In this document: positions 27,345 to 50,367 of the stretch, in pieces | How the letters are laid out: the number at the start of each line of letters is the position of its first letter | How positions within the stretch are numbered: the stretch's first letter is position 1 | NCBI RefSeq assembly: GCF_002854065.1 | Contig: NZ_CP024147.1 | Direction: 5' to 3' (one strand) | Source of the DNA: Escherichia coli | Lineage (GTDB): Bacteria; Pseudomonadota; Gammaproteobacteria; Enterobacterales; Enterobacteriaceae | Length of the DNA: 64,000 nt | Made by a program: the position numbers and the translations under genes | Notes under the pieces: model-generated | Database searches by the model: none | Told to the model about the DNA's origin: nothing | Seen by the model: the letters and a program-made list of their open reading frames with translations, nothing else

Positions 27345-27545
27345 TAAGTTTCACCTGCACTGTAGACCGGATAAGACATTATCGCCTTCTCCGGCAATTG
27401 AAGCCTGATGCGACGCTGAACGCGTCTTATCAGGCCTACGGGAAGCACCGATGTAGGTCGGATAAGGCGCTCGCGCCGCATCCGACAAGCGATGCCAGAT
27501 GCGACGCTTGCGCGTCTTATCAGGCCTACGGGTGACCGACAATAC
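27345..27545. repeat. REP/BIME elements between sucB and sucC
   Basis: Multiple copies of the gcctgatgcgacgc / gtaggcctgataagacgcg palindromic unit. Confidence 0.8.
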
Positions 27546-27614
27546 CCGGGAGCGATACGAAATATTCGGTCTACGGTTTAAAAGATAACGATTACTGAAG
27601 GATGGACAGAACAC

Positions 27615-29750: not shown

Positions 29751-30316
29751 TGCCTTAAACGGTTAACCACGGTCGAAATCTGACTGCAGGCTTGACTGCA
29801 TGACCACAGCCACTGTGGATTGCCGCAACCGACCGCAAGCCACGAATAAGAACGACGGCGAATTTCGAATCGTTACCTGATGCACTGGCTTCCCAGCGTT
29901 TGACCGTAGCGTTAAGTAAATCAACAAAAGCGATGTTCACCGCTTTTCGTCAAGTCGTGCCATTTGTCAGCCAGGATCGGGTCTTTACCCCGGATATTGC
30001 AGCATCGCAAAAATTCTTAGAGGGATATGCTATAAATCAAAAATAAAATCTTTGTTGATTGTTTATCATAATATCCACAGATATGATAAATGATATCAAT
30101 TTAATAATTTTCACTTAATGTGATTCCGGATAATTCGAAAGGCGCTGTGCTTTTCGGATTATTATTATCTGATTAAGATATTTGTCACGCCAGGCTTACT
30201 GGTTTATAAATGTCAATCATGATTCTTATAAATTATTTATTGCTGCTTTGGTTACCATTACTTCGTAATAAGTAATGTATTTTTGATTGTTTAAACTATT
30301 TTTAAGGGACGGCATT

Positions 30317-30418
30317 ATGCGAGGGAAAATACCTAAAACGGAACTGCTGGTGACTTTTGAGGTCGTCGCACGTCATGAAAGTTATACCAGAGCGGCAGAG
30401 GAGTTAGCGTTAACCCGG
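30317..30418 (+). pseudogene. LysR-type transcriptional regulator, N-terminal 34 codons only, truncated by IS1
   Basis: MRGKIPKTELLVTFEVVARHESYTRAAEELALTR resembles the LysR winged-HTH start; the reading frame runs into the IS1 terminus and stops on IS1 sequence. Confidence 0.6.
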
Positions 30419-30431
30419 TAATGACTCCAAC

Positions 30432-30935
30432 TTATTGATAGTGTTTTATGTTCAGATAATGCCCGATGACTTTGTCATGCAGCTCCACCGATTTTGAGAA
30501 CGACAGCGACTTCCGTCCCAGCCGTGCCAGGTGCTGCCTCAGATTCAGGTTATGCCGCTCAATTCGCTGCGTATATCGCTTGCTGATTACGTGCAGCTTT
30601 CCCTTCAGGCGGGATTCATACAGCGGCCAGCCATCCGTCATCCATATCACCACGTCAAAGGGTGACAGCAGGCTCATAAGACGCCCCAGCGTCGCCATAG
30701 TGCGTTCACCGAATACGTGCGCAACAACCGTCTTCCGGAGCCTGTCATACGCGTAAAACAGCCAGCGCTGGCGCGATTTAGCCCCGACGTATCCCCACTG
30801 TTCGTCCATTTCCGCGCAGACGATGACGTCACTGCCCGGCTGTATGCGCGAGGTTACCGACTGCGGCCTGAGTTTTTTAAATGGCGGAAAATCGTGTTGA
30901 GGCCAACGCCCATAATGCGGGCGGTTGCCCGGCAT
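30432..30935 (-). CDS. insB: IS1 InsB (C-terminal transposase domain, expressed as InsAB' by -1 frameshift)
   Basis: 167-aa ORF …[47 protein letters not shown]… matches IS1 InsB. Confidence 0.95.
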
Positions 30936-31129
30936 CCAACGCCATTCATGGCCATATCAATGATTTTCTGGTGCGTACCGGGTTGAGAAGCGGTGTAAGT
31001 GAACTGCAGTTGCCATGTTTTACGGCAGTGAGAGCAGAGATAGCGCTGATGTCCGGCAGTGCTTTTGCCGTTACGCACCACCCCGTCAGTAGCTGAACAG
31101 GAGGGACAGCTGATAGAAACAGAAGCCAC
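30854..31129 (-). CDS. insA: IS1 InsA (transposition inhibitor / N-terminal part of the InsAB' transposase)
   Basis: 91-aa [46 protein letters not shown]… matches IS1 InsA. Confidence 0.95.
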
Positions 31130-31184
31130 TGGAGCACCTCAAAAACACCATCATACACTAAATCAGTAAGTTGGCAGCATCACC

Positions 31185-31655
31185 CACCACGATTTGCAAA
31201 ATTTCATTGTGCGCCATGGCATCGACAATGCTGGTGGGGAAAGCATGCGAAATAAATACTTTTAGCGTAAAGGGTTCTGCCGCGACCACTCCGGTGGTTT
31301 CGGCACCGTGTGCAACAAAATTAATTCCTGTACCTGGCATGAAGAAATTTACCGTTATCAAGCCTAAGGCAATTGACAGCAATGAGGCGCAAATAAATAA
31401 AAAGAGTGTTTTAGAAAAAATACGACCAAGGGCTTTGGCATCGCCCATTTTAGCAATACCTACCACCAGGGTAGAGACCACTAACGGAGCGATAATCATT
31501 TTTATCAGTCGTAAGAAAATCGTCGTGAATATCGATATTTCTTGCGCATAGAGTTTTGCGGTTTCCGGTGAAGCAGTGTTATTGAGCACTACGCCGATAA
31601 TCATTCCAAGTACCAGCGCCAAAAGAATCATCGTGGTTAAACTTATTTTCTTCAT
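31185..31655 (-). pseudogene. Glutamate/dicarboxylate:cation symporter (DAACS family, GltP/DctA-like), N-terminal ~157 codons, 3'-truncated by IS1
   Basis: IFLRLIKMIIAPLVVSTLVVGIAKMGDAKALGRIFSKTL… aligns with the GltP N-terminal region; GGAGG RBS before ATG at 31655; the ORF continues into IS1, where it terminates. Confidence 0.8.
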
Positions 31656-31815
31656 TTTTTCCTCCATCAGGTGCACGGCGATAAATCAGAATCAGGAGAA
31701 GTAGATGCCTGAATAGAGATTCAGGCATCTACCTGCTATTACAACCTTACAAATAGCTGAAGTGTTGAACTGCAATAAGTGACGGGATGTCAGTTGGCTA
31801 AAAGTATTCGGATTT

Positions 31816-32133
31816 TTACAAATCGAAACTCATATTTAATAAAGGTGCATGTTGCTGTGCACCATAGACATCATTGTCACCTACATTCCCGGAGATAATA
31901 TCTCGTGGCATGACGATTTTTACTGCGTTAGAAGGATCAAACCAGACAATACGATGAATAAAGTCAGGTTCAACATGATATAAGCGCGCAATCAGTTCTG
32001 GGGTTAATTGCCCTGATGATTTAACTCGCTCATAGTTTTCTTTCGTTTTAAATAAAATATCTAAAACCAGTTCGTAAGGTCCGGCATTTTTCGAACGAAT
32101 GACTTGCGCCAGTGAGACAATTGACTGTTTCAT
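31816..32133 (-). CDS. DUF4387-family protein (105 aa), function unknown
   Basis: Small ORF translationally coupled (ATGA overlap) to the upstream DUF1446 gene; family assignment is from memory of the AtuA-partner family. Confidence 0.6.
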   Translation of the reverse strand: MKQSIVSLAQVIRSKNAGPYELVLDILFKTKENYERVKSSGQLTPELIARLYHVEPDFIHRIVWFDPSNAVKIVMPRDIISGNVGDNDVYGAQQHAPLLNMSFDL

Positions 32134-33500
32134 GCCTGAACTCCTTCTGGCGTCACCTGTTCAATATGGAAATCAAAACGCAGAGCGTCGTTGGCTTCAA
32201 TCAGGTGATATATGGAAAATTCGTATACCGGCCCGCCCTGGATATCAGAAGGGGAGAACGGGAACGCCAGGTTGCCTGCGGTAGCGATGCGGTTTTCATA
32301 GCCGTAGTGCAGCATGGTAGAGCGCACCAGCGAGCAAACGCTATTGGCAATTTCCTGGGTCGGTGCAACTACATCAAGGACAATCCCCAGCTCATGCCCG
32401 GCAGTTTGCATCGGTTCATGGTCGCCCATCACCCCGTTTTTACCGTACAGGTGGAAAATGATGCGAATGCTGTCATCGTCTAACGACAGGTTACGCGAAA
32501 CGCTGGTTTTGACTTCATCGATGATTTTATCGATCCCGGCGATCATGATCGGGTCGCGCGTTCCGGCGATGGTCAGACAGCGGAAGCCCACCCGTCGCGC
32601 ACCTTCCAGTTTCAGGGCATACGGCGTTTCTTCATGCTTAGAACCGCTGACGTACACTTCGCCGTCATTGACTGCTTTAAATGTGCAGCCTTTCAGGTTC
32701 AACACGCCGCCAGGTCCTGGCAGGAAGTAGGGATCGGATTTCTCATACAGTGTGTGTGCAGCTGCTGACGTTTCGGTAAATTTACGCTTCGGATTAAATG
32801 TCTTCAGCGTAAAGCCGTTGTCATCAATGATGCCCATCGCACAGTCAGAGCCTGAGCCGGGCGTTGCGGCGATTGCTGCGCACTCAAGGATTTTCCCACA
32901 ATGCAGCGCCAGACCTTCATCAAAGCCTTGCATGATCGGTAGCGCAGCAAAGCAGGCCGGGTCGTAAGCGCGCCCACCCAGCACCACTTGCGCGCCTTCT
33001 TTCAGCGCCCGCTGGAAGGGTTCGATGCCCATTTGCGCGACGATATACGTACTTTCGTCAATCGCGTCGTGGGTTAACGGCGGGACAAAATCCAGCGCCG
33101 TGATTTTGCCGTTATCCAGCGCCTGGTGGACGATGGCTTTGTCAACGTCTGCCGGGATCAACGCCATCGAGAACGAGAGGTGCTCTTCCTGGGCAATCTC
33201 ATGAATTATTTCTCGGCACCACTCCAGGTGTGGTGCGGCACCAGAACCGCCAGCCGTTCCGATCACCACCGGTATATTATTTTGCACGCCTGCGGTGATC
33301 ATATAGCGCAGATCGCGCTTGACCCCTGCGCGATCGGTAAACGGTTTGCCTGCCCCGAGGTAGTGGGGGCCTGGATCGGAAGAGCCTGCATCAACGGCGA
33401 TCAGATCGGGCGATTCTGCCATCGCTTTACGGAAGCTCTCTTCCGGGAATCCATACCCGAGGATTGCCGTTGGCGATAAGACTTTAAAAGAACGAGCCAT
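32130..33500 (-). CDS. DUF1446 / AtuA-like protein (456 aa), function unknown
   Basis: ORF immediately downstream of the methylaspartase gene (3-nt gap); AtuA-like assignment from sequence recollection, not a search. Confidence 0.6.
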   Translation of the reverse strand: MARSFKVLSPTAILGYGFPEESFRKAMAESPDLIAVDAGSSDPGPHYLGAGKPFTDRAGVKRDLRYMITAGVQNNIPVVIGTAGGSGAAPHLEWCREIIHEIAQEEHLSFSMALIPADVDKAIVHQALDNGKITALDFVPPLTHDAIDESTYIVAQMGIEPFQRALKEGAQVVLGGRAYDPACFAALPIMQGFDEGLALHCGKILECAAIAATPGSGSDCAMGIIDDNGFTLKTFNPKRKFTETSAAAHTLYEKSDPYFLPGPGGVLNLKGCTFKAVNDGEVYVSGSKHEETPYALKLEGARRVGFRCLTIAGTRDPIMIAGIDKIIDEVKTSVSRNLSLDDDSIRIIFHLYGKNGVMGDHEPMQTAGHELGIVLDVVAPTQEIANSVCSLVRSTMLHYGYENRIATAGNLAFPFSPSDIQGGPVYEFSIYHLIEANDALRFDFHIEQVTPEGVQA

Positions 33501-33503
33501 TTG

Positions 33504-34745
33504 TTAATCCTTAGCCTGCAACAGCGCGATAGTACGATTCATTTCGTTGAAGACGATATCGAGGCCTTCGTCAAAACCCATCCCTGGTTTTACCAGCATA
33601 CGCATAGGGCGAGCGGCAAGGGCGACGTGGACACAGGTGCGGGCACTAACATCAGTTTCATTGCAGGTGCCGCCCTGGTACGCTTCCATGCTGTGGCTGT
33701 TGCAGTAAAGAACCGCATCGACGATGTTGTGAATACTTCCAAGATCCGGGGTTTTGATTTGCACCATGTGACAACTGGCGGCATCAGTGAAATCAACAAT
33801 ATCCTGGTAGGTGTTACACCATTCATCGGCCACAATTTTCACGCCGGAACCGAGGCGCGTCAGCTCTTTGGTAATCGCGGTCAGCAGGCGAATTTGGTCG
33901 GGCTTGTTACCGGCATCGACCGGCCCTTCAATGTAGAGCGGCAGGCCTTGCGCTTCTTTTTCCAGGCTGGCGATGTATTGCGCACAGCGAAGCGGATCCA
34001 TATCGAAGATCAGACCGATAGTGCCGTATACATCGATGTGCAGGGTAGGGTGGTAGCGTGCGCTGGTGCGCTTGCTCAGAATGCGATCCGACAGCCAGCG
34101 GACATATTCGCGCAGTTTTTCACCTTTAAAGCCCAGCTTCTCTTCGACGTTATTAATCAGCGCATGGGGCAGCACGTCGATGCCCTTAAGGATCATCTTA
34201 TCGACGGCGATATATCGATCGTCGCCGCTCTGGCCAAATAATGGAATGGATTCCGCCACGTGTGGCAACTGCCATTCATCACAGACCACTTCAGTTTTCA
34301 GACGGCCGGTTGCCAGCGCAGTAGCATCAAGCAGCGCCTGTGATAATCCGTAGCGCACGGCGGTATGCAGCAAGTTGCCGTCAATACGCAGTTTGTCGAA
34401 GAAACGGGCATTCGGCAGGAAAGCATCCACATCGCGGCCTACCAGTAATGGCTTGATATGGTCGTTGAGGAACGGAATAAAGTGCTCTGCGAGGAACAGT
34501 GGATCGCGACCACCTGCCCCGGAATACTGTACGGCAGCACAGTCACCTACAGCGACCGCGCCGTTTTCCAGAATCAACTGTACCGATACGCACTCCCCGG
34601 CCTGACGAACGGCGTTAAACCCCTGTGTTACCGGCTCCCCGGTATAAAAAAAGCCGTCATGACCCGCTCCGTTTTTTATCGCCTGCTGGTCATCGAAATA
34701 GAATGAGGAGTAGCCAGCGGTGAACAGAGCCTGTTTTATTTTCAT
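33504..34745 (-). CDS. mal: 3-methylaspartate ammonia-lyase (methylaspartase, enolase superfamily)
   Basis: 413-aa ORF; strong similarity to clostridial methylaspartase as I remember it (…FYFDDQ.AIK.GAGHDGF.YTG…CAAVQYSGAGGRDPLFLA…HMVQIKTPDLG…). Confidence 0.9.
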   Translation of the reverse strand: MKIKQALFTAGYSSFYFDDQQAIKNGAGHDGFFYTGEPVTQGFNAVRQAGECVSVQLILENGAVAVGDCAAVQYSGAGGRDPLFLAEHFIPFLNDHIKPLLVGRDVDAFLPNARFFDKLRIDGNLLHTAVRYGLSQALLDATALATGRLKTEVVCDEWQLPHVAESIPLFGQSGDDRYIAVDKMILKGIDVLPHALINNVEEKLGFKGEKLREYVRWLSDRILSKRTSARYHPTLHIDVYGTIGLIFDMDPLRCAQYIASLEKEAQGLPLYIEGPVDAGNKPDQIRLLTAITKELTRLGSGVKIVADEWCNTYQDIVDFTDAASCHMVQIKTPDLGSIHNIVDAVLYCNSHSMEAYQGGTCNETDVSARTCVHVALAARPMRMLVKPGMGFDEGLDIVFNEMNRTIALLQAKD

Positions 34746-36190
34746 TATGGTCTTTCTATTAATTTACTGTGGGATACAGCATTGATGTCATCTACAACCA
34801 TCTGGAATGTCGGTTGGCGTCCTTCAAAGCGTGCGCGTTCCGCGACGTAATCGTGGTGGAGGTCGAGAATATCTTTTGGCAATGGAACGGCTCCGGCTTC
34901 CAGTACGCGTATCGCGCCGGTGTTGTCACGGACCGGAAGAATATTGCCCGCGTTGCAGGCGGCTGGCGCAAACGGCACATCCAGTACGCCCGCTTCAAAT
35001 GCCAGCACCGTACCGCGCGCAATATCACCATTACCCAGTTCGAACACTTTATTCAGTACCGCGCGAACCTCGCTCTTAATCAGTTCAATTTCCAGTTCAA
35101 CCGCAGGGCACGGCGGGAATTTCTGCTCATTGACCATGTTGAGCATCTGGCGGGAGGCTTTCAGCCCCTGAATGTTGGCAGCGGCAGTCGGGATACCCCA
35201 GGCTTCGTGCGGACTTTTGGTGATGACTTTGGTGGCACCAGACATCCCCGCGACGGCTGCGCCCCAGGAGATAATAGCGAACGCTTTCGATTCGTCTTCC
35301 GGAAAGCCGCCCATCCACTGGTGAAACACGGTACTCAATTCATAGTCGGTATAGCCATAGCTCTGAAAGTATTCGTGTGCAAGTTCACGCAGAGACTGGA
35401 TCGCCGCAACATCCTGCGTCAGGCTGCCGACCTGGCCATAACCAACGGTGATAGATTTCACACCCTGTTCCAGTGCCAGCAAGCCTTCGATTATCGCGAT
35501 AGAGTGCGAGATAAACGGCGGGATCAGCGTACCCGTTAGTGGGCCAAACGGTTCGCGGTTGATGCGGATCCCGTGTTCTTCATACATCCCCATTAAACGG
35601 TCGCAGTACTGCCAGTCGCGGATCGATTTTTCCAGCGTTACGCGTTTGGCATACGGAATGTTGTAGGAAATGCCACCGCCTTCATAACTGGTAAAGCCGC
35701 TGGCCATTGAGATTTCAGCCAGCAGACGCGCATCTGGCGTGCCGTGGCGGATCTGTAGCGGTTTTTGCAGGGTTTCGGTGAGGCGACGGCAAGCTGCGAC
35801 ACCATGGTTAACTACCGGTAAACCGTTCAGTTTAGAGGTTCCGGCTTCGATGGATTTTTTAATCCCTACAGCCGCTTCTTCGTACCGATTCAGACGGGTA
35901 TATGCATCGATGGTGCTTGGCAGCAGATCGCACTCTTCTTGTAGTGTTTTCAGCAGTTCGATGTGTTCGTCCATCAGCGCCACACCTGCGCGCGGTTGGC
36001 TAAGGGTTTTACCTTCCTTGTCTGCTTTCAGCAGCGCAAGAGAGAAGCGTTTATGCTCAGGGATGGTTTGTTGGTATTTAACGCCATCTTCAAAGATTTC
36101 AACATCCTTGCCGGTTTCCCAGGTTTTCAGTACCTGTTGCCGCTCGGTCATGAATTCGTCATGGGTTAATTTCTTATTTCGAAGTTCCAT
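34745..36190 (-). CDS. glmE: Glutamate mutase E subunit (methylaspartate mutase epsilon chain)
   Basis: 481-aa ORF, 1-nt stop/start overlap with mal; size and position match GlmE/MutE. Confidence 0.85.
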   Translation of the reverse strand: MELRNKKLTHDEFMTERQQVLKTWETGKDVEIFEDGVKYQQTIPEHKRFSLALLKADKEGKTLSQPRAGVALMDEHIELLKTLQEECDLLPSTIDAYTRLNRYEEAAVGIKKSIEAGTSKLNGLPVVNHGVAACRRLTETLQKPLQIRHGTPDARLLAEISMASGFTSYEGGGISYNIPYAKRVTLEKSIRDWQYCDRLMGMYEEHGIRINREPFGPLTGTLIPPFISHSIAIIEGLLALEQGVKSITVGYGQVGSLTQDVAAIQSLRELAHEYFQSYGYTDYELSTVFHQWMGGFPEDESKAFAIISWGAAVAGMSGATKVITKSPHEAWGIPTAAANIQGLKASRQMLNMVNEQKFPPCPAVELEIELIKSEVRAVLNKVFELGNGDIARGTVLAFEAGVLDVPFAPAACNAGNILPVRDNTGAIRVLEAGAVPLPKDILDLHHDYVAERARFEGRQPTFQMVVDDINAVSHSKLIERP

Positions 36191-36208
36191 TGATTGCAGC
36201 CTTAATTG

Positions 36209-37597
36209 TTATAGGGTTAAGCATTGAATACTGGTGCGCGCGGCGGCCAGCGGATCGACTCTGGCGACGTTTGCCAGCAGTGGTAATAGCCCCCGGGAAT
36301 CGCGGTAATATTCAAATTCGGTCGGTAAGAGAATGCGTTTACCGTCGTCGTTTAACTCGCGGTATTTCAACCAGTGATGCATATCGAACTGACTGGCACG
36401 CGAGAGCCATCCGCCGGATCCGACGACTTTACGCACGGTTGTCAGGTCACGTCCCATCTGTAAATCGACATTGCCGACGCAGGTGCAGACCTCTTTTTTG
36501 GTGCCCGCATGTCTTTCGGTGGCATAACCCACACACAGTCCGGCCAGGACGGTATCGAAATATTTCTCTTCTGCATTTGCGGGTAAGTAGTCGGGATGAG
36601 CGACTAGATGACGGAGGTAATGATAAAAAGCGTCCAGCTGTGCGGGTTGCTGAGCAAAATTCACATTGACTAACTCTTTCGCACTTTCACCAACCACCAC
36701 TGCCGAGACGCGCATTCCCAGATCGCCTTCCACCGTCCGTTTTACGAAGGGTTCCGGTACGCCGTGTAAAACGGTGTCGGGCGAGAGCGTGTTGGCACAG
36801 GCGGAATAAACATCGGTGGTTGCGCCGCCCATGTCGATCAGCATGAACTCTTTCCAGCTGTGATCGACGTTACTGATTGCCTTGACCAGTTCAAAGACCG
36901 TCCATGGTGTCGGCATTGGTTCTTCGCCTGTTTTATCAACAATGACATCCAGCCCTTTCCCTTTAACGATGCGTTTAAGGAATATGTCGCAAATAGCCTG
37001 GCGTGCGGCTAAAGGGTTCGGATGGTCAAGATCGGGCAGAACATTGTCGACGATGGTCAGGTCTTTATGCCCGAGGATCTCCTGCACCTCGTCCTGAATA
37101 TCCCGGTTTCCGGCATAAATAATGGCGCAGTCGAGTTTGGATTCTGCCAGCACACGGGCGTTATTCAGTCCGTAGCTTTCTTCTCCGCCGTCGGTGCCGC
37201 CGGTGAACAAGAGAATATCGGGCTGCGTTTCTTCCAGTGCCTGGATATCACGGCGGTTCAGCTTGTAGGCGTAATATTGCGCAATTTTAGCACCCGCAGA
37301 GTGAGCGGTTACTTTCGCGGTTTCCAGGGTGATAGAAGGCACCAATCCCATTGCGGCAACCGCCAGCCCACCTTTGGCAGAGGAGGAATACTTCAATGCA
37401 ACCTCACCGCTGTTTAACAGGGGGAGGGCATTATCTACGTTTAACACCTGGTTCAGGCTGGAGAAAAACCCCTTCGCCAGATGATGGGTGGTGGTTGGGG
37501 TCAGTACGTGGTTAACCAACGTTAACGCGTCCCCCTCCCGGGTGAAGAGGGCTGCTTTGGTCCACGTCGATCCAATATCGACAGAGACGATTTGCAT
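36209..37597 (-). CDS. glmL: Glutamate mutase-associated protein GlmL/MutL (ASKHA-fold ATPase-like)
   Basis: 462-aa ORF between glmS and glmE, as in clostridial glutamate mutase operons. Confidence 0.8.
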   Translation of the reverse strand: MQIVSVDIGSTWTKAALFTREGDALTLVNHVLTPTTTHHLAKGFFSSLNQVLNVDNALPLLNSGEVALKYSSSAKGGLAVAAMGLVPSITLETAKVTAHSAGAKIAQYYAYKLNRRDIQALEETQPDILLFTGGTDGGEESYGLNNARVLAESKLDCAIIYAGNRDIQDEVQEILGHKDLTIVDNVLPDLDHPNPLAARQAICDIFLKRIVKGKGLDVIVDKTGEEPMPTPWTVFELVKAISNVDHSWKEFMLIDMGGATTDVYSACANTLSPDTVLHGVPEPFVKRTVEGDLGMRVSAVVVGESAKELVNVNFAQQPAQLDAFYHYLRHLVAHPDYLPANAEEKYFDTVLAGLCVGYATERHAGTKKEVCTCVGNVDLQMGRDLTTVRKVVGSGGWLSRASQFDMHHWLKYRELNDDGKRILLPTEFEYYRDSRGLLPLLANVARVDPLAAARTSIQCLTL

Positions 37598-38046
37598 CAG
37601 ATAGCCTCTTCAAGAATACGAGTATCAACGTCATGACGTTGGTTGATATCGTGGGCCATCAGCTGACAAACATCTTCTAAGTCATGACTTGGGGCAAAGA
37701 CGCGATCAAATCCCATCTCTTTGAATTTGGTTTCCACGTCAGCGAAGTCATGTTTTCCGACCACCAGGTTACCGCCCACATAGAGCAGGATGTCCCCCAG
37801 TCCACGCTCGATGCAGCGTTCGCGCATGCCCAGACAGTCGATATCGCCATGCCCATAGATAGAGGAGACGACAATCGCGTCAGCGCCAGTTTCAATGGCC
37901 GCATCAATATATTCGTCCTGGCTGACCATTACGCCCAGATTAATGACTCTGAAGTCGTGGTTGCTAAAAACGCGGTCCAGAACTTTATTGCCTACTGCAT
38001 GGCAGTCCGCGCCAATAACGCCAATCACAAGTGTTGCTTTCTTCAT
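37597..38046 (-). CDS. glmS: Glutamate mutase S subunit (B12-binding sigma chain)
   Basis: About 149 aa from [24 protein letters not shown]…; cobalamin-binding DxHxxG motif (ADCHAVG); TGATG overlap with glmL. Confidence 0.9.
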
Positions 38047-38592
38047 GGGTAATCCTTTGTAAGACAGAGAGTAAAATAAGTTACACACGTCGTATTTATG
38101 GCCGTTCATAACGGCACAGGTTTAATATCACAGGAGTGTCTTTATCTGACCGTAATGTTGCAATTGATCTATTTTCAAAATGTCTTTCGGGAAATGATTG
38201 TTTAAAGTGTGTTTTTAAATTCCCATGTTAATTCAGTATGTTATGTCAACTAATGTCATGAATGTTAAATTTTTAAAATTAACTTGATTTAATGTATTGA
38301 GATAATTGTGATCTACTTCTAATTTGCATTTTAGTGATATGGGTTTAGCCATGAGTAAATGCATTTCATAAAATTTAAGTCGAATTTCACTGCAATTCAT
38401 CTCTGCTTAATGTAAAAATAATGTTGAAAATAACAAATGGTTAATGATTCATGCGAATTATGACGTTAGTTAGCTCTTTTGATTTTTCGTAAAAAAGAGA
38501 GGTACATGAAGGTGCTACCAGTATGAGTAACGTTAATCAAAGGTTTTATTACGTCTGGCAATAACGCAGGCCATTTTCGCGACTGGGTGGAT

Positions 38593-39015
38593 TTAATCAG
38601 TATAATCCTCATACAATATTTCAGGATTAACTGAACCGTTAACCGGGTTTTGGTGTTGAAATTTAGAAATGGCGGAGTCAATCAATGAAGACAGTATCGA
38701 AAAAATAACTGTGTCAGAACTAATTTCAATTAATCCTTCTCGTTGTTGACCAAAAAAGATATTTATCTTGATTTCATTTGTACTACGGCAATCAATATGT
38801 AGTAATTTTTGATCGCTGAGATTTTCTGTTTCATAAATGTTTTTGGCGATAGTCGGATGTATTGATGCCAGACATCTGCTCAGATAAGCCAGATCCTTTA
38901 GGGAACACCCCGCTGAGTAGAGGATGTCAGAGAATTTTTGTGTGTCAACTGTTGTCTCTGAAGCGTATGTTGCATTGACAGGAAGGGTGTTGAAAGAGAT
39001 TTGAGATGGGATCAT
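38593..39015 (-). CDS. Hypothetical acidic protein (140 aa) in AT-rich segment
   Basis: ORF in a strongly AT-rich region; no recognisable motif. Confidence 0.5.
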   Translation of the reverse strand: MIPSQISFNTLPVNATYASETTVDTQKFSDILYSAGCSLKDLAYLSRCLASIHPTIAKNIYETENLSDQKLLHIDCRSTNEIKINIFFGQQREGLIEISSDTVIFSILSSLIDSAISKFQHQNPVNGSVNPEILYEDYTD

Positions 39016-39096
39016 TATTTAAATCTTTCCGTGAGTAATAAAAATTAATCCCCAGGCATTGTTTAACAATATTTGCCATAGGGGATATATAGAAAA

Positions 39097-40041
39097 TTAA
39101 AGTATTTTATTGGCTTCGGTTAACTGATCTATAACCAGTGCCAGATTGGTAAACATTTTGAAAAAGCGATACTGGCTCGGAATATCTCTTTCAAAGACGA
39201 AACATTCAAGGTCATTGTTTGAAAAATAAAGGACTAGTGTTGCTGATTCGTCAGGGAAAACATGGAAATGTATCTGGTTACCAGAAGGAGGATAGTCCAG
39301 AAGAAGGGTATCTTTGCCCGTCACATACCTGTTGTTGTCGTGGACGCTACGCTCACACTTCATCAGAGGTGTCAGGATACTCATGTATTCATCTGATGTT
39401 AATTTATTAAAATCATCATTCATTTTAAAGAAACGATAAAGTAACAGTACATCCTCTTGCGTAACCGGTTCGTTTGTTTTTAGAGGGAAATAAGCGGGAA
39501 CCAGAAGATGAGGTTCTAATCTATTTTGTTGAGCGCTATAACTGAATTTGAACATAAATTCCGGATCGCTCATCAATTGAGCGACATAATTATGCCTGGC
39601 TTCGAAAATTTTAATTTTTATCAGGTTAAATAAGTCTGTTTCGTCATCCTGTATTAAAAGACATTGGCCATAGCAGCCAGGCTTTTTTTCATTATAAGCA
39701 GAAACGGTTATTCTGTCAGAGGTGTCAACGTTATATTCAAAAGCCAGATAGTGACCTTCTTCATCGCGATTTGTTTCCAGGTTATTTAAATTCATCACAT
39801 GAAGTGTTTGCAATGCTGATTCAATGAGCTGTTGACTCTCTGAGGTAAATGTTTCGCGCTGCGTTGTATAAAGTGTATCAATTCCAACGACTATCCGATG
39901 TGGGTCAAGGATGGCGGCAATCATCTTTATTACCTGCACAGTCACGGGTGATGTCATTGATTCTTTATCTGTTTTTAGAGAATCATTAGATGGCCAACCT
40001 GAGAAGCGATTGACAGCCGAACCGATATTATCAGGACTCAT
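39097..40041 (-). CDS. Hypothetical protein (314 aa) in AT-rich segment
   Basis: ORF with Ser/Asn/Pro-rich N-terminus, no transmembrane segments, no recognisable catalytic motif; co-directional with the 140-aa ORF. Confidence 0.55.
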   Translation of the reverse strand: MSPDNIGSAVNRFSGWPSNDSLKTDKESMTSPVTVQVIKMIAAILDPHRIVVGIDTLYTTQRETFTSESQQLIESALQTLHVMNLNNLETNRDEEGHYLAFEYNVDTSDRITVSAYNEKKPGCYGQCLLIQDDETDLFNLIKIKIFEARHNYVAQLMSDPEFMFKFSYSAQQNRLEPHLLVPAYFPLKTNEPVTQEDVLLLYRFFKMNDDFNKLTSDEYMSILTPLMKCERSVHDNNRYVTGKDTLLLDYPPSGNQIHFHVFPDESATLVLYFSNNDLECFVFERDIPSQYRFFKMFTNLALVIDQLTEANKIL

Positions 40042-40547
40042 AGCAGCAACCTCATTGTAATCAAGCGAGGCGCTGAGCGTACTCGGCTATAGAAAAACTA
40101 ACTTGCAAAAATCGCTCATTTTTCATTTATCAGGCGAAAGTGGTCTCTGTACACTCAGAAACAATCACTCCCGCTAAGTCATACCTGTTTCATCGATACA
40201 TTTAAGTGATTATTACTAATGAAACAATAACATAACGGGCTTACGGTCGGTGCTCATAAAGGCAACAATCAATTAACTTTGATAAAAATATGTTATGTAA
40301 AATAGCAACAAATTGGCTACTCTAATCAATTGGTATTATAAAAAGTGGATAAGGCGGTTCTGTTAAATAAAATACTGGTTTTTTATCTATACCTTTTCAT
40401 TGTAATAATTGTGTTGCATAAATATTTCACAATAAATTAACAATAAAATCACCAATGATCTATGGTTTATACATAATTAACATATTTGGTTGGTTTTGAT
40501 ATAAATCAATTTTTAATTCTTGAAAAAAATCTGCAAAACACGATAAA

Positions 40548-40561
40548 TTGTCGTAGATCAA
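40548..40561. promoter_or_regulatory. Putative FNR/CRP-family site in the cydA upstream region
   Basis: ttgtcgtagatcaa matches TTGAT-N4-ATCAA with one mismatch; cydAB is known to be FNR/ArcA-regulated. Confidence 0.3.
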
Positions 40562-40846
40562 ATTGATGAGATCGTGACAATTTCGCTATAAATTGATCAC
40601 TGTCGAAAAATGCAAATTTGCTCAATAAAAACCTGTTTATTGTAAGGATTTTGCGGCGTAATATAATTACGGGATCAATTTGGTTTATTCATTAACATAT
40701 TTGTAACTTTTTTATCATTGTCTTTTCCTCTTTTGATGAAATGGCAACGATAGGGGCGAGCAAATAATTTTGTATTGGGGCATGCGTGTGACCCTTTCTA
40801 ACGGGGTTCACTCTCGGAGTCTTCATGCGATGAGCAAGGAGTCATG

Positions 40847-42415
40847 ATGTTAGATATAGTCGAACTGTCGCGCTTACAGTTTGCCTTGACCGCGATGTAC
40901 CACTTCCTTTTTGTGCCACTGACGCTCGGTATGGCGTTCCTGCTGGCCATTATGGAAACGGTCTACGTCCTTTCCGGCAAACAGATTTATAAAGATATGA
41001 CCAAGTTCTGGGGCAAGTTGTTTGGTATCAACTTCGCTCTGGGTGTGGCTACCGGTCTGACCATGGAGTTCCAGTTCGGGACTAACTGGTCTTACTATTC
41101 CCACTATGTAGGGGATATCTTCGGTGCGCCGCTGGCAATCGAAGGTCTGATGGCCTTCTTCCTCGAATCCACCTTTGTAGGTCTGTTCTTCTTCGGTTGG
41201 GATCGTCTGGGTAAAGTTCAGCATATGTGTGTCACCTGGCTGGTGGCGCTCGGTTCAAACCTGTCCGCGCTGTGGATTCTGGTTGCAAACGGCTGGATGC
41301 AAAACCCAATCGCGTCCGATTTCAACTTTGAAACTATGCGTATGGAGATGGTGAGCTTCTCCGAGCTGGTGCTTAACCCGGTTGCTCAGGTGAAATTCGT
41401 TCACACTGTAGCGTCTGGTTATGTGACTGGCGCGATGTTCATCCTCGGTATCAGCGCATGGTATATGCTGAAAGGTCGTGACTTCGCCTTCGCTAAACGC
41501 TCCTTTGCTATCGCTGCCAGCTTCGGTATGGCTGCCGTTCTGTCTGTTATTGTTCTGGGTGATGAATCCGGCTACGAAATGGGCGACGTGCAGAAAACCA
41601 AACTGGCTGCTATTGAAGCTGAGTGGGAAACGCAACCTGCGCCTGCTGCCTTTACTCTGTTCGGCATTCCTGATCAGGAAGAGGAGACGAACAAATTTGC
41701 GATCCAGATCCCTTACGCGCTGGGCATCATTGCAACGCGTTCCGTGGATACTCCAGTTATCGGCCTGAAAGAACTGATGGTGCAGCATGAAGAACGCATT
41801 CGTAACGGGATGAAGGCGTACTCTCTGCTCGAGCAACTGCGTTCTGGTTCTACCGACCAGGCGGTTCGTGACCAGTTCAACAGCATGAAGAAAGACCTCG
41901 GTTACGGTCTGCTGCTGAAACGCTATACGCCAAACGTGGCTGATGCGACTGAAGCGCAGATTCAACAGGCAACCAAAGACTCCATTCCGCGTGTAGCGCC
42001 GCTGTACTTCGCGTTCCGTATCATGGTGGCGTGTGGCTTCCTGCTGCTGGCAATCATCGCGCTCTCTTTCTGGAGTGTCATCCGCAACCGCATTGGCGAG
42101 AAAAAATGGCTCCTGCGCGCCGCGCTGTACGGTATTCCGCTGCCGTGGATTGCTGTAGAAGCGGGCTGGTTCGTGGCTGAATATGGCCGCCAACCGTGGG
42201 CTATCGGTGAAGTGCTGCCGACAGCTGTGGCGAACTCGTCACTGACCGCAGGCGATCTCATCTTCTCAATGGTGCTGATTTGCGGCCTGTATACCCTGTT
42301 CCTGGTGGCAGAATTGTTCTTAATGTTCAAGTTTGCACGCCTCGGCCCAAGCAGCCTGAAAACCGGTCGCTATCACTTTGAGCAGTCTTCCACGACTACT
42401 CAGCCGGCACGCTAA
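40847..42415 (+). CDS. cydA: Cytochrome bd-I ubiquinol oxidase subunit I
   Basis: 522 aa from [28 protein letters not shown]. Confidence 0.97.
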
Positions 42416-42430
42416 GACAGGAGTCGTCAA

Positions 42431-43570
42431 ATGATCGATTATGAAGTATTGCGTTTTATCTGGTGGCTGCTGGTTGGCGTTCTGCTGATTGGTTTTGCAG
42501 TCACTGACGGTTTCGACATGGGGGTGGGCATGCTCACCCGTTTCCTCGGTCGTAACGACACCGAGCGTCGAATTATGATTAACTCCATCGCACCACACTG
42601 GGACGGTAACCAGGTTTGGCTGATCACCGCAGGCGGCGCACTGTTTGCTGCCTGGCCGATGGTCTATGCCGCTGCGTTTTCCGGCTTCTATGTGGCGATG
42701 ATCCTCGTGCTGGCGTCTTTGTTCTTCCGTCCGGTCGGTTTTGACTACCGCTCCAAGATTGAAGAAACCCGCTGGCGTAACATGTGGGACTGGGGCATCT
42801 TCATTGGTAGCTTCGTTCCGCCGCTGGTGATTGGTGTAGCGTTCGGTAACCTGTTGCAGGGCGTACCGTTCAACGTTGATGAATATCTGCGTCTGTACTA
42901 CACCGGTAACTTCTTCCAGTTGCTTAACCCGTTCGGCCTGCTGGCAGGCGTGGTGAGCGTAGGGATGATCATTACTCAGGGCGCGACTTATCTGCAGATG
43001 CGTACCGTGGGCGAACTGCACCTGCGTACCCGTGCAACGGCTCAGGTGGCGGCACTGGTGACACTGGTCTGCTTCGCACTAGCTGGCGTATGGGTGATGT
43101 ACGGTATCGATGGTTATGTCGTGAAATCGACAATGGACCATTACGCAGCCTCTAACCCGCTGAATAAAGAAGTGGTTCGTGAAGCTGGCGCATGGCTGGT
43201 TAACTTCAACAACACGCCAATTCTGTGGGCTATTCCGGCACTGGGTGTGGTTCTGCCGCTGCTGACCATCCTGACTGCACGTATGGATAAAGCCGCGTGG
43301 GCGTTTGTGTTCTCCTCCCTGACGCTGGCCTGCATCATCCTGACTGCCGGTATCGCAATGTTCCCGTTTGTGATGCCGTCCAGCACCATGATGAACGCAA
43401 GTCTGACAATGTGGGATGCAACTTCCAGCCAGCTGACACTTAACGTCATGACTTGGGTTGCGGTGGTTCTGGTACCGATCATTCTGCTCTACACCGCCTG
43501 GTGTTACTGGAAAATGTTCGGTCGTATCACCAAAGAAGATATTGAACGTAACACCCACTCTCTGTACTAA
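42431..43570 (+). CDS. cydB: Cytochrome bd-I ubiquinol oxidase subunit II
   Basis: 379-aa hydrophobic ORF immediately after cydA. Confidence 0.97.
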   Translation: MIDYEVLRFIWWLLVGVLLIGFAVTDGFDMGVGMLTRFLGRNDTERRIMINSIAPHWDGNQVWLITAGGALFAAWPMVYAAAFSGFYVAMILVLASLFFRPVGFDYRSKIEETRWRNMWDWGIFIGSFVPPLVIGVAFGNLLQGVPFNVDEYLRLYYTGNFFQLLNPFGLLAGVVSVGMIITQGATYLQMRTVGELHLRTRATAQVAALVTLVCFALAGVWVMYGIDGYVVKSTMDHYAASNPLNKEVVREAGAWLVNFNNTPILWAIPALGVVLPLLTILTARMDKAAWAFVFSSLTLACIILTAGIAMFPFVMPSSTMMNASLTMWDATSSQLTLNVMTWVAVVLVPIILLYTAWCYWKMFGRITKEDIERNTHSLY

Positions 43571-43584
43571 GTAAGGAGCTAAAA

Positions 43585-43698
43585 ATGTGGTATTTCGCAT
43601 GGATTCTGGGAACGCTTCTTGCCTGTTCGTTTGGGGTAATCACCGCGCTGGCGCTTGAGCACGTCGAATCAGGCAAAGCCGGTCAAGAAGACATCTGA
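43585..43698 (+). CDS. cydX: Cytochrome bd-I small subunit CydX (37 aa)
   Basis: Short ORF MWYFAWILGTLLACSFGVITALALEHVESGKAGQEDI with RBS aaggag; not in the ORF track because under 60 aa. Confidence 0.9.
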   Translation: MWYFAWILGTLLACSFGVITALALEHVESGKAGQEDI

Positions 43699-43991
43699 TG
43701 AGTAAGATTATCGCAACCTTGTATGCGGTAATGGACAAGCGCCCCCTGCGGGCGCTTTCCTTCGTGATGGCGCTTCTGTTAGCAGGATGTATGTTTTGGG
43801 ACCCATCTCGTTTTGCCGCGAAGACCAGTGAACTGGAAATCTGGCATGGTTTATTGCTGATGTGGGCCGTCTGTGCTGGTGTGATTCACGGCGTGGGCTT
43901 TCGTCCGCAGAAGGTTCTTTGGCAAGGGATTTTTTGCCCATTGCTTGCCGATATTGTTCTCATTGTCGGGCTGATTTTCTTCTTCTTTTAA
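43698..43991 (+). CDS. ybgE: Inner membrane protein YbgE
   Basis: 97-aa hydrophobic ORF overlapping the cydX stop. Confidence 0.85.
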   Translation: MSKIIATLYAVMDKRPLRALSFVMALLLAGCMFWDPSRFAAKTSELEIWHGLLLMWAVCAGVIHGVGFRPQKVLWQGIFCPLLADIVLIVGLIFFFF

Positions 43992-44007
43992 ATCAGAATT
44001 CTCTTTA

Positions 44008-44040
44008 AAAAATTATGGGCCGCTCCAGGCCCATAAATTT
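44008..44040 (+). terminator. Rho-independent terminator after ybgE
   Basis: Hairpin ttatgggccgctccaggcccataa followed by a T-run. Confidence 0.6.
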
Positions 44041-44140
44041 TTACGCTCCCTTAACTTGCCCTCATTCCCAAACCTCAATCGCGCGCGTATAGTAGCAGCG
44101 TTTAAAAGCTCTAACTTTTGTTGCATTACCGGGATGTAAA

Positions 44141-45234
<1,094 letters not shown>

Positions 45235-45237
45235 GCC

Positions 45238-45666
45238 ATGGCCAGAGCGCGTGGACGAGGTCGTCGCGATCTCAAGTCCGAAATCAACATTGTACCGTTG
45301 CTGGACGTACTGCTGGTGCTGTTGCTGATCTTTATGGCGACAGCGCCCATCATCACCCAGAGCGTGGAGGTCGATCTGCCAGACGCTACTGAATCACAGG
45401 CGGTGAGCAGTAACGATAATCCGCCAGTGATTGTTGAAGTGTCTGGTATTGGTCAGTACACCGTGGTGGTTGAGAAAGATCGCCTGGAGCGTTTACCACC
45501 AGAGCAGGTGGTGGCGGAAGTGTCCAGCCGTTTCAAGGCCAACCCGAAAACGGTCTTTCTGATCGGTGGCGCAAAAGATGTGCCTTACGATGAAATAATT
45601 AAAGCACTGAACTTGTTACATAGTGCGGGTGTGAAATCGGTTGGTTTAATGACGCAGCCTATCTAA
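45238..45666 (+). CDS. tolR: Tol-Pal system protein TolR
   Basis: 142-aa ORF (ExbD family). Confidence 0.95.
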   Translation: MARARGRGRRDLKSEINIVPLLDVLLVLLLIFMATAPIITQSVEVDLPDATESQAVSSNDNPPVIVEVSGIGQYTVVVEKDRLERLPPEQVVAEVSSRFKANPKTVFLIGGAKDVPYDEIIKALNLLHSAGVKSVGLMTQPI

Positions 45667-45730
45667 ACATCTGCGTTTCCCTTGCTTGAAAGAGAGCGGG
45701 TAACAGGCGAACAGTTTTTGGAAACCGAGA

Positions 45731-47026
45731 GTGTCAAAGGCAACCGAACAAAACGACAAGCTCAAGCGGGCGATAATTATTTCAGCAGTGCTGCATGTCA
45801 TCTTATTTGCGGCGCTGATCTGGAGTTCGTTCGATGAGAATATAGAAGCTTCAGCTGGAGGCGGCGGTGGTTCGTCCATCGACGCTGTCATGGTTGATTC
45901 AGGTGCGGTAGTTGAGCAGTACAAACGCATGCAAAGCCAGGAATCAAGCGCGAAGCGTTCTGATGAGCAGCGCAAGATGAAGGAACAGCAGGCTGCTGAA
46001 GAACTGCGTGAGAAACAAGCGGCTGAACAGGAACGCCTGAAGCAACTTGAGAAAGAGCGGTTAGCTGCTCAGGAACAGAAAAAGCAGGCTGAAGAAGCCG
46101 CAAAACAGGCCGAGTTAAAGCAGAAGCAAGCGGAAGAGGCGGCAGCGAAAGCGGCGGCAGATGCTAAAGCGAAGGCCGAAGCGGATGCTAAAGCTGCGGA
46201 AGATGCAGCGAAGAAAGCGGCTGCAGATGCGAAGAAAAAAGCAGAAGCAGAAGCCGCCAAAGCCGCAGCCGAAGCGCAGAAAAAAACCGAGGCAGCAGCT
46301 GCGGCGCTGAAGAAGAAAGCGGAAGCGGCAGAAGCAGCTGCAGCTGAAGCAAGAAAGAAAGCGGCAACTGAAGCTGCTGAAAAAGCCAAGGCAGAAGCTG
46401 AGAAGAAAGCGGCTGCTGAAAAGGCTGCAGCTGATAAGAAAGCGGCAGCAGAGAAAGCTGCAGCCGACAAAAAAGCAGCAGAAAAAGCGGCTGCAGAAAA
46501 GGCAGCAGCTGATAAGAAAGCAGCGGCAGAAAAAGCCGCCGCAGACAAAAAAGCGGCAGCTGCAAAAGCAGCAGCTGCAAAAGCAGCAGCTGCAAAAGCA
46601 GCAGCTGAAAAAGCCGCTGCAGCAAAAGCTGCCGCAGAGGCAGATGATATTTTCGGTGAGCTAAGCTCTGGTAAGAATGCACCGAAAACGGGGGGAGGGG
46701 CGAAAGGGAACAATGCTTCGCCTGCCGGGAGTGGTAATACTAAAAACAATGGCGCATCAGGGGCCGATATCAATAACTATGCCGGGCAGATTAAATCTGC
46801 TATCGAAAGTAAGTTCTATGACGCATCGTCCTATGCAGGCAAAACCTGTACGCTGCGCATAAAACTGGCACCCGATGGTATGTTACTGGATATCAAACCT
46901 GAAGGTGGCGATCCCGCACTTTGTCAGGCTGCGTTGGCAGCAGCTAAACTTGCGAAGATCCCGAAACCACCAAGCCAGGCAGTATATGAAGTGTTCAAAA
47001 ACGCGCCATTGGACTTCAAACCGTAA
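45731..47026 (+). CDS. tolA: Tol-Pal system protein TolA (GTG start)
   Basis: 431-aa ORF; N-terminal anchor, long Ala/Lys/Glu-rich helical repeat domain, C-terminal domain. Confidence 0.95.
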   Translation: MSKATEQNDKLKRAIIISAVLHVILFAALIWSSFDENIEASAGGGGGSSIDAVMVDSGAVVEQYKRMQSQESSAKRSDEQRKMKEQQAAEELREKQAAEQERLKQLEKERLAAQEQKKQAEEAAKQAELKQKQAEEAAAKAAADAKAKAEADAKAAEDAAKKAAADAKKKAEAEAAKAAAEAQKKTEAAAAALKKKAEAAEAAAAEARKKAATEAAEKAKAEAEKKAAAEKAAADKKAAAEKAAADKKAAEKAAAEKAAADKKAAAEKAAADKKAAAAKAAAAKAAAAKAAAEKAAAAKAAAEADDIFGELSSGKNAPKTGGGAKGNNASPAGSGNTKNNGASGADINNYAGQIKSAIESKFYDASSYAGKTCTLRIKLAPDGMLLDIKPEGGDPALCQAALAAAKLAKIPKPPSQAVYEVFKNAPLDFKP

Positions 47027-47158
47027 TCGCGATGCTGACTGTTCCGACGGTCAACATCAGGCACCGGTTGCCACGGGGTTCTGGTAGTTTTGTGTATTTT
47101 AGTTTGTTAACATTCTGCTAAATTATCGTGGGCCATCGGTCCAGATAAGGGAGATATG

Positions 47159-48451
47159 ATGAAGCAGGCATTACGAGTAGCATTTGGTTTTCTCATATTG
47201 TGGGCATCAGTTCTTCATGCTGAAGTCCGCATTGTGATCGACAGCGGTGTAGATTCCGGTCGTCCTATTGGAGTTGTTCCTTTCCAGTGGGCGGGCCCTG
47301 GTGCGGCACCTGAAGATATTGGCGGCATCGTTGCTGCCGACTTGCGTAACAGCGGTAAATTTAATCCGTTAGATCGCGCTCGTCTGCCACAGCAGCCGGG
47401 TAGTGCGCAGGAAGTACAACCAGCTGCATGGTCCGCGCTGGGTATTGACGCTGTAGTTGTCGGTCAGGTCACTCCGAATCCGGATGGTTCTTACAATGTT
47501 GCTTATCAACTTGTTGACACTGGCGGCGCACCGGGTACTGTACTTGCTCAGAACTCGTACAAAGTGAACAAGCAGTGGCTGCGTTATGCTGGTCATACCG
47601 CCAGTGATGAAGTGTTTGAAAAACTGACCGGTATTAAAGGTGCGTTCCGTACCCGTATTGCCTACGTTGTTCAGACCAACGGCGGTCAGTTCCCGTATGA
47701 ACTGCGCGTATCTGACTATGACGGTTACAACCAGTTTGTCGTTCACCGTTCACCACAGCCGCTGATGTCCCCGGCGTGGTCACCAGACGGTTCTAAACTG
47801 GCTTATGTGACCTTCGAAAGCGGTCGTTCCGCGCTGGTTATCCAAACGCTGGCAAACGGCGCTGTACGTCAGGTGGCTTCATTCCCGCGTCACAACGGTG
47901 CGCCTGCATTCTCGCCAGACGGCAGCAAACTGGCATTCGCCTTGTCGAAAACCGGTAGCCTGAACCTGTACGTAATGGATTTGGCTTCTGGTCAGATCCG
48001 CCAGGTGACTGATGGTCGCAGTAACAATACCGAACCGACCTGGTTCCCGGACAGCCAGAACCTGGCATTTACTTCTGACCAGGCCGGTCGTCCACAGGTT
48101 TATAAAGTGAATATCAACGGCGGTGCGCCACAACGTATTACCTGGGAAGGTTCGCAGAACCAGGATGCGGATGTCAGCAGCGACGGTAAATTTATGGTAA
48201 TGGTCAGCTCCAACGGTGGGCAGCAGCACATTGCCAAACAAGATCTGGCAACGGGAGGCGTACAAGTTCTGTCGTCCACGTTCCTGGATGAAACGCCAAG
48301 TCTGGCACCTAACGGCACTATGGTAATCTACAGCTCTTCTCAGGGGATGGGATCCGTGCTGAATTTGGTTTCTACAGATGGGCGTTTCAAAGCGCGTCTT
48401 CCGGCAACTGATGGACAGGTCAAATTCCCTGCCTGGTCGCCGTATCTGTGA
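47159..48451 (+). CDS. tolB: Tol-Pal system periplasmic protein TolB
   Basis: 430 aa from [21 protein letters not shown] (signal peptide); beta-propeller protein. Confidence 0.95.
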
Positions 48452-48461
48452 TAATAATTAA

Positions 48462-49007
<546 letters not shown>

Positions 49008-49016
49008 GAGAATTGC

Positions 49017-49808
49017 ATGAGCAGTAACTTCAGACATCAACTATTGAGTCTGTCGTTACTGGTTGGTATAGCGGCCCCCTGGGCCGCTTTTGCTCAGGCA
49101 CCAATCAGTAGTGTCGGCTCAGGCTCGGTCGAAGACCGCGTCACTCAACTTGAGCGTATTTCTAATGCTCACAGCCAGCTTTTAACCCAACTCCAGCAAC
49201 AACTCTCTGATAATCAATCCGATATTGATTCCCTGCGTGGTCAGATTCAGGAAAATCAGTATCAACTGAATCAGGTCGTGGAGCGGCAAAAGCAGATCCT
49301 GTTGCAGATCGACAGCCTCAGCAGCGGTGGTGCAGCGGCGCAATCAACCAGCGGTGATCAAAGCGGTGCGGCGGCATCAACGACGCCGACAGCTGATGCT
49401 GGTACTGCGAATGCTGGCGCGCCGGTGAAAAGCGGTGATGCAAACACGGATTACAATGCAGCTATTGCGCTGGTGCAGGATAAATCCCGCCAGGATGACG
49501 CAATGGTGGCATTTCAGAATTTCATCAAAAATTACCCTGATTCAACTTACCTGCCAAACGCCAATTATTGGCTGGGTCAGTTAAACTACAACAAGGGTAA
49601 AAAAGATGATGCGGCGTACTATTTTGCTTCGGTAGTGAAAAACTATCCGAAGTCACCAAAGGCTGCAGATGCGATGTTTAAAGTCGGTGTCATCATGCAG
49701 GACAAAGGTGACACCGCAAAAGCGAAAGCCGTATACCAGCAGGTTATCAGTAAATACCCTGGTACTGATGGCGCTAAACAGGCACAAAAACGTCTGAACG
49801 CGATGTAA
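49017..49808 (+). CDS. cpoB: Cell division coordinator CpoB (YbgF; TPR protein)
   Basis: 263-aa ORF with signal peptide, coiled coil and TPR region; last gene of the tol-pal cluster. Confidence 0.95.
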   Translation: MSSNFRHQLLSLSLLVGIAAPWAAFAQAPISSVGSGSVEDRVTQLERISNAHSQLLTQLQQQLSDNQSDIDSLRGQIQENQYQLNQVVERQKQILLQIDSLSSGGAAAQSTSGDQSGAAASTTPTADAGTANAGAPVKSGDANTDYNAAIALVQDKSRQDDAMVAFQNFIKNYPDSTYLPNANYWLGQLNYNKGKKDDAAYYFASVVKNYPKSPKAADAMFKVGVIMQDKGDTAKAKAVYQQVISKYPGTDGAKQAQKRLNAM

Positions 49809-49817
49809 TGCATAACA

Positions 49818-49852
49818 CACGACCAGAAGTCGCATTATTTCTGGTCGTGTCG
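49818..49852 (+). terminator. Rho-independent terminator after cpoB
   Basis: Hairpin cacgaccagaa…ttctggtcgtg. Confidence 0.6.
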
Positions 49853-49972
49853 TGCGAATCATAAGCAGTTGAGTGATCTACATCGAAATTTTTGTTGCGC
49901 TCAAGTCTGAAATCAGTAATATATGCCGCCGTTGCCACGGGATATCAAACAAACCGAAAGCAACGAAAAAGT

Positions 49973-50048
49973 GGGTCGTTAGCTCAGTTGGTAGAGCAGT
50001 TGACTTTTAATCAATTGGTCGCAGGTTCGAATCCTGCACGACCCACCA
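49973..50048 (+). tRNA. lysT: tRNA-Lys (anticodon UUU)
   Basis: 76-nt GGGTCGTTAGCTCAGTTGGTAGAGC…CTTTTAATC…GGTTCGAATCCTGCACGACCCACCA. Confidence 0.97.
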
Positions 50049-50083
50049 CTAACCTAGTTAGTTGTAGTATCCAGCGTAGTATC

Positions 50084-50159
50084 GGGTGATTAGCTCAGCT
50101 GGGAGAGCACCTCCCTTACAAGGAGGGGGTCGGCGGTTCGATCCCGTCATCACCCACCA
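50084..50159 (+). tRNA. valT: tRNA-Val (anticodon UAC)
   Basis: 76-nt GGGTGATTAGCTCAGCTGGGAGAGC…CCTTACAAGG…GGTTCGATCCCGTCATCACCCACCA. Confidence 0.97.
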
Positions 50160-50161
50160 CC

Positions 50162-50237: not shown

Positions 50238-50288
50238 CTAATTACGGTGGGTTCGGTGGAAGTAGTTTGTAGTATCCAGCGCAGTATC

Positions 50289-50364: not shown

Positions 50365-50367
50365 CTC

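Follow-up and report, generated by a model that had tools for sequence, protein, structure and literature searches.

Insertion sequences of the IS1 family are about 768 bp long and end in imperfect terminal inverted repeats of about 23 bp (GGTRATG...CCAACTTA). The adjacent deletions that IS1 promotes in E. coli are known from the classical deletions of the gal region, which arise by replicative intramolecular transposition. A simple IS1 insertion is flanked by a target-site duplication of 8-9 bp (PMC12428005). A missing duplication is attributed either to adjacent deletion or to recombination between IS copies, and in the long-term evolution experiment (LTEE) all of the IS-associated deletions, 14 of 14, consisted of an insertion followed by an adjacent deletion (PMC11708052). 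The gene cluster concerned here was described by Kronen and Berg in 2015 for E. coli O157:H7, where it encodes GlmS, MutL/GlmL, GlmE, Mal, DUF1446, GltP, FumD, CobA, and an LTTR (PMC4682846). FumD is a mesaconase/fumarase, FumA and FumB show mesaconase activity at ~10% of their catalytic efficiency with fumarate, and no conditions were found for expression of the cluster in O157:H7 (PMC4682846).

The window, a stretch of 64,000 nucleotides from E. coli contig NZ_CP024147.1, shares with this O157:H7 glutamate mutase/methylaspartase/FumD cluster its genes, their order, and their place in the sucD-cydA interval, with ~99% nucleotide identity over the retained part, but it lacks the LTTR (except for 100 nt), CobA/CobO, FumD, and 63% of GltP. 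The order in O157:H7 PV15-279 is sucD, LysR (+), cobO (-), class I fumarate hydratase (-), symporter (-), DUF4387, and AtuA, followed by methylaspartate ammonia-lyase, glmE, glmL, glmS, two hypothetical genes, and cydA. The window aligns with this locus up to its position 4979 on the left and again from 9001 on the right, leaving 4,021 bp absent. The same flanks are also 4,021 bp apart in the close relative CUWW06, and against both genomes the end points of the gap fall exactly at the two ends of an IS1 element. The lost DNA takes in cobO and the class I fumarase/mesaconase gene fumD entirely, together with 806 nt from the 3' end of the LysR gene and 810 nt from that of the symporter gene, so that two whole genes were removed besides the two that were truncated. 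No copy of the 4-kb segment is present elsewhere within the 64-kb window. A sequence-only reading had proposed that DNA was deleted between the LysR and symporter genes, and the reference loci bear this out: neither in O157:H7 PV15-279 nor in CUWW06 do the two genes abut. That reading had also mentioned a mesaconase-type fumarase clustered with glutamate mutase and methylaspartase genes in some E. coli, correctly according to PMC4682846, and had noted that the window has no such gene; fumD lies inside the deleted segment.

The element at the junction is a complete, IS1B-like IS1 of 768 bp on the minus strand (30417..31184), with IRR at 30417 and IRL at 31184, and is the only IS1 copy in the 64 kb. 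Its terminal repeats, GGTAATGACTCCAACTTATTGAT and GGTGATGCTGCCAACTTACTGAT, are identical at 18 of 23 positions. Also on the minus strand, insA is an intact ORF of 91 codons (30854..31129, read from 31129 to 30854), the insB' reading frame forms a 167-codon ORF (30432..30935), and the frameshift motif TTAAAAAACTC (A6C, -1; 30870..30880) joins insA to insB', giving a modelled InsAB' fusion of 232 aa without interruption. In size, ends, and insA/insB' frameshift fusion the element agrees with the IS1 family. PF03400 (DDE_Tnp_IS1) is on record for the 167-aa and 232-aa products from related loci. A copy in CUWW06, annotated as an IS1B family transposase with programmed frameshift, matches the window element at 768 of 768 positions, and that copy does carry a 9-bp duplication. 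The window copy has none: the 9 bp on its left, CGTTAACCC (30408..30416), and on its right, CACCACGAT (31185..31193), differ, and reading both junctions at nearby offsets revealed no match between the flanks. Thus both the intact element, with inverted repeats and insA/insB motif, and the unlike flanking 9-mers were correctly described from the letters alone. Absence of the duplication is expected if the IS1 copy bounds a deletion, and leaves the identity of the element unaffected.

On the left, the LysR-type regulator gene is reduced to the first 100 of its 906 nt (30317..30416, plus strand), which align to PV15-279 4880..4979 and to CUWW06. The ORF starts at 30317 and runs to 30421, where a TAA inside the IS1 end stops it after 34 codons, the length first read; the 34-aa product gives a weak match to Pfam HTH_1. 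On the right, the truncated gene for a GltP-like dicarboxylate/amino acid:cation symporter (31158..31655, minus strand; native part aligned to PV15-279 9001..9471) starts at 31655 and keeps 471 native nt (31185..31655), or 157 of 426 codons, followed by 8 IS1 codons and a stop. The resulting 165-aa fusion product matches PF00375 (SDF). The symporter had been taken to lose its C-terminal half; it is indeed truncated, but the loss amounts to 63% of the protein. Nor is it the terminal gene of the operon, as had been supposed, because fumD and cobO lie beyond it on the same strand in intact loci. The earlier picture of two truncated convergent genes likewise needs amendment, in that both are truncated but the native partner of LysR in convergence is cobO. 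The remainder of the cluster, consisting of DUF4387, AtuA/DUF1446, methylaspartate ammonia-lyase, glmE, glmL, and glmS, is intact as full-length ORFs on the minus strand (31816..38046), and over 31185..50810 the window differs from CUWW06 by one mismatch and one gap. The core by which a methylaspartate cluster is recognized (glmS, glmL, glmE, and mal) is therefore complete, and the Pfam domains B12-binding, MutL, Met_asp_mut_E, and MAAL are on record for contigs identical to the window, while the co-located genes for the FumD mesaconase, CobA/CobO, GltP, and the LTTR are deleted or truncated.

Contiguous loss with breaks exactly at the IS ends, relative to a close relative, is what marks an adjacent deletion. 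We favor, with a probability of roughly 55%, an IS1-mediated deletion in which a simple insertion at one site was followed by intramolecular transposition into the other. From the ancestral order sucD - LysR (+) - cobO (-) - fumD (-) - symporter (-) - DUF4387 - AtuA - mal - glmE - glmL - glmS, the first event would have been a simple insertion, either into CACCACGAT in the symporter gene or into CGTTAACCC in the regulator gene, both of them preferred targets. The transposase would then have carried the far end of IS1 to the second of these targets, on the same chromosome, by intramolecular replicative transposition, and the 4,021 bp between the targets would have left with the second IS1 copy, one IS1 staying behind between two different 9-mers. 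Both the order of these steps and a single transposition step as the maker of the deletion are what we infer. The event resembles the classical IS1 adjacent deletions in that a single IS, intact and active in the lineage, stands at the junction without a duplication and next to a contiguous loss; it departs from them in that IS1 can be shown to hit both end points recurrently in natural isolates, and the ancestral single insertion is one that we infer. The kind of event is well known, an ordinary textbook IS-mediated deletion, and what it modestly adds is that IS1 has reused both end points to the exact nucleotide.

That reuse is seen at each site. At the LysR site, the look-up of the 34-aa product found a variant IS1 end (GGTAATGGTGCC..., IRL) joined at the same nucleotide in 13 contigs. 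Because the joined end is IRL, this IS1 lies in the orientation opposite to that in the window; the contigs carry a full hut operon upstream, and their background matches ST648-like genomes. For the symporter site, the 271-aa ORF predicted to remain downstream of an insertion was used in an exact-protein look-up. The contigs so obtained start with an IS1 end joined to ATCGTGGTG and the remaining gene, and since they run from the IS1 end into the remaining gene, they retain the 4-kb segment. The end is IRR, giving the window orientation, in SRR18212315, from a divergent lineage (98.8% identity), and in the CUWW06-like pair SRR23696841 and SRR27389660, with one SNP in common. It is IRL, giving the opposite orientation, in ERZ18534393, SRR29490147, and ERZ28588267, which have another SNP in common, and in ERR10960881. 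Apart from the window, then, the symporter target CACCACGAT has been used independently at least three times, in both orientations, and the LysR target CGTTAACCC once. Both end points are thus bona fide IS1 targets, which argues that IS1 transposase made both junctions in the window. The same finding weighs against a deletion unrelated to IS1, with IS1 entering the scar afterward, and late insertion would moreover have left a 9-bp duplication where none is present. An assembly artefact or rearrangement fares no better, given that both flanks are collinear with the reference and that independent short-read contigs, matching the window at 100% identity, show each junction. We found no positive support for any of these accounts and regard them as very improbable indeed.

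Simple insertion at the symporter site, in the window orientation and with the 4-kb segment retained, is present in samples of the CUWW06-like lineage, although these are probably not direct ancestors. The case for SRR23696841 as an ancestor of the window is weakened by the fact that its contig stops at window-equivalent position 30080, where CUWW06 has its own IS1 copy with a 9-bp duplication, a private site that carries no IS1 in the window; the sample therefore probably belongs to the CUWW06 branch. No direct ancestor of the window allele was demonstrated among the sampled genomes, and with two hot sites, the window event may be independent of all the insertions that relatives have at the same places. 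That no single-insertion ancestor is proven for the window clone would suit a one-step event, in which an IS1 arriving from a distant donor joined its ends to two targets 4 kb apart, no earlier insertion having taken place; duplication-free moves of such a kind have been proposed for IS5 and IS481 (PMC11708052). We consider this improbable: in the LTEE, the one large data set that the paper examined, every IS-associated deletion had an earlier insertion (PMC11708052), and a simple insertion at the same site and in the same orientation does exist in a closely related lineage.

Proof that both sites are independently used by IS1 also lends itself to another explanation, namely two direct IS1 insertions, at CGTTAACCC in the regulator gene and at CACCACGAT in the symporter gene, followed by RecA-dependent homologous recombination with loss of one copy and 4 kb. 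The end product would be identical to that observed, the lineage is rich in IS1 (at least 40 matches in CUWW06), and in the literature such recombination stands beside adjacent deletion as a usual reason for a missing duplication (PMC11708052); three events are needed, however, against two for insertion followed by adjacent deletion, and we regard this explanation as possible but rather doubtful. The junctions that the two sites can yield are outer LysR / IRR, IRL / symporter 5' part, IRR / ATCGTGGTGTTCTC, and IRL end / CGTTAACCCAAAGTG. Scans of JGI metagenome contigs gave no matches to the last of these, the inner LysR junction, and none to the known outer junction used as a control, and because even the known junction is missing there, the scan is uninformative on the inner one. 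A 214-aa ORF downstream in LysR was tried as another route to the inner junction and rejected, being swamped by unrelated nonsense or frameshift alleles among the matches listed.

Other IS1 copies in the locus show how consistently simple insertions are marked. All four simple insertions in other strains carry an 8-9-bp duplication: upstream of LysR in MEW (30308, 9 bp) and in CUWW06 (30080, 9 bp), in fumD in E200086 (9 bp), and in DUF4387 in ETEC4077 (8 bp). The IS1 copies without a duplication are those of the window and of strain EC2641 (NZ_JALDNN010000001.1), and both coincide with missing DNA. EC2641 resembles the window in having an IS1B in the same orientation, without duplication, that connects what is left of the LysR gene to what is left of the symporter gene, cobO and fumD being absent. 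Its end points differ from those of the window, 411 nt of LysR and 273 nt of the symporter gene being kept. Because each of the two genomes retains DNA absent in the other, and their backgrounds differ (98.8% identity), the two deletions are independent.

Further insertions were seen nearby. In GCA_000457475.1 (KE699742.1), an insert of ~2.8 kb interrupts the symporter gene 23 bp from the window site. It contains a DDE_Tnp_1-type transposase gene and two IS1 copies, the second of them more divergent, and the overlap of its flanks at reference 9024..9032 implies that a composite, transposon-like element went in with a 9-bp duplication. An IS1 also lies within LysR in AP027877.1, near nt 252. 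Two contigs with an IS1 end at the symporter site terminate inside the AT-rich sucD-LysR spacer, SRR29490147 at ~30237 and SRR23696841 at ~30080 (window-equivalent positions). This suggests further repeat or IS junctions in that spacer, where the IS1 copies of MEW (30308) and CUWW06 (30080) also lie.

Why the same nucleotides should be chosen repeatedly invites a tentative proposal, which we think rather less likely than not: that IS1 recognizes each end point as a hot spot specific in sequence or structure, and that the regulator/transporter end of a cryptic cluster is recurrently inactivated, whether by selection or by a local DNA feature, such as a bound nucleoid protein, that directs IS1. 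The proposal draws on reuse of the 9-mers in both orientations, by IS1 variants and in unrelated lineages, on the EC2641 deletion, and on a nonsense allele of the symporter gene and several pseudogene alleles of LysR. AT-richness was rejected as the cause of the hot spots, local AT content being only 50-60%. The nonsense allele, found in ERR10177410, GCA_918388435.1, and SRR8387654, is a CAA-to-TAA change at symporter codon 154 (window ~31194..31196) and adjoins the IS1 target 9-mer. The 214-aa downstream LysR fragment occurs in 70 index blocks, and among the matches listed it is preceded by upstream ORFs of 29, 62, 68, 71, 74, and 80 aa, representing several different premature stops or frameshifts. 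From these sequences the LysR-type regulator appears often to be inactivated. Some loci with the 214-aa fragment also have split neighboring genes and may reflect assembly errors.

CUWW06, isolated from wastewater in Thailand, keeps the whole 4-kb segment yet differs from the window by only four mismatches over the rest of the 64 kb, and on this sequence comparison the deletion is a recent event in an IS1-rich lineage. An apparent difference between the two in the tRNA array proved to be a repeat artefact of alignment, seven tRNA genes being present in both. The cluster core is contained in 1,131 complete E. coli genomes (about a fifth of 5,426) and the 4-kb segment in 1,127, while neither window junction occurs in any of the 5,426, whether queried with IS1 included or as flanks joined without IS1; EC2641 alone has the flanks brought together. 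Exact-protein look-up placed the 165-aa symporter fusion on six contigs, and the 34-aa LysR remnant with the window junction on four contigs of public runs and one NCBI assembly; the alternative-start products, a 172-aa symporter fusion and a 44-aa LysR remnant, had no record in such look-ups. Of the eight junction contigs listed, all of which end inside IS1, seven are 100% identical to the window and one has two mismatches. Junction contigs identical to the window indicate that the allele circulates as a clone. The highest numbers of IS1 matches were seen in small chromosomes: at least 40 in 4.65 Mb for CUWW06, 39 in 4.62 Mb for XJ5.2, and 25 in 4.74 Mb for EC2641, a pattern that hints at IS1-driven genome reduction in these IS1-rich strains. 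The deleted 4-kb segment has a match in one plasmid record, and the mal-glmE core likewise has one; the cluster is plasmid-borne, at least in part, in at least one case.

Deprived of putative regulator, mesaconase, transporter, and a corrinoid adenosyltransferase of its own, the cluster would seem to be a decaying remnant, and the window strain should not be scored as having a complete methylaspartate pathway. The loss may represent neutral decay of a cryptic cluster, since the one study that tried found no inducing conditions in O157:H7 (PMC4682846) and FumA and FumB have mesaconase activity. The locus shows a route of decay for an accessory metabolic cluster carried by roughly one complete E. 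coli genome in five, and provides two natural, nucleotide-exact IS1 target hot spots usable for the study of IS1 target choice.

The sucD-side border of the island is itself variable. On the plus strand at window 29900..30046 lies a 48-codon ORF that is annotated 'histidine ammonia-lyase' in EC2641 and has the appearance of a leftover from the 3' end of hutH. In ST648-like E. coli, hutI, hutG, and hutH form a complete hut operon immediately upstream of the same LysR gene, and other strains have there an RtcB-family gene beside a Glyco_hydro_38 (alpha-mannosidase-type) gene. The border therefore exists in at least three forms. Farther upstream, the sucB-sucC spacer (window 27370..27565) is 196 bp longer than in O157:H7, with extra DNA that is common to CUWW06 and EC2641 and that we take, from its ORF translations, to resemble REP/BIME-type palindromic units.
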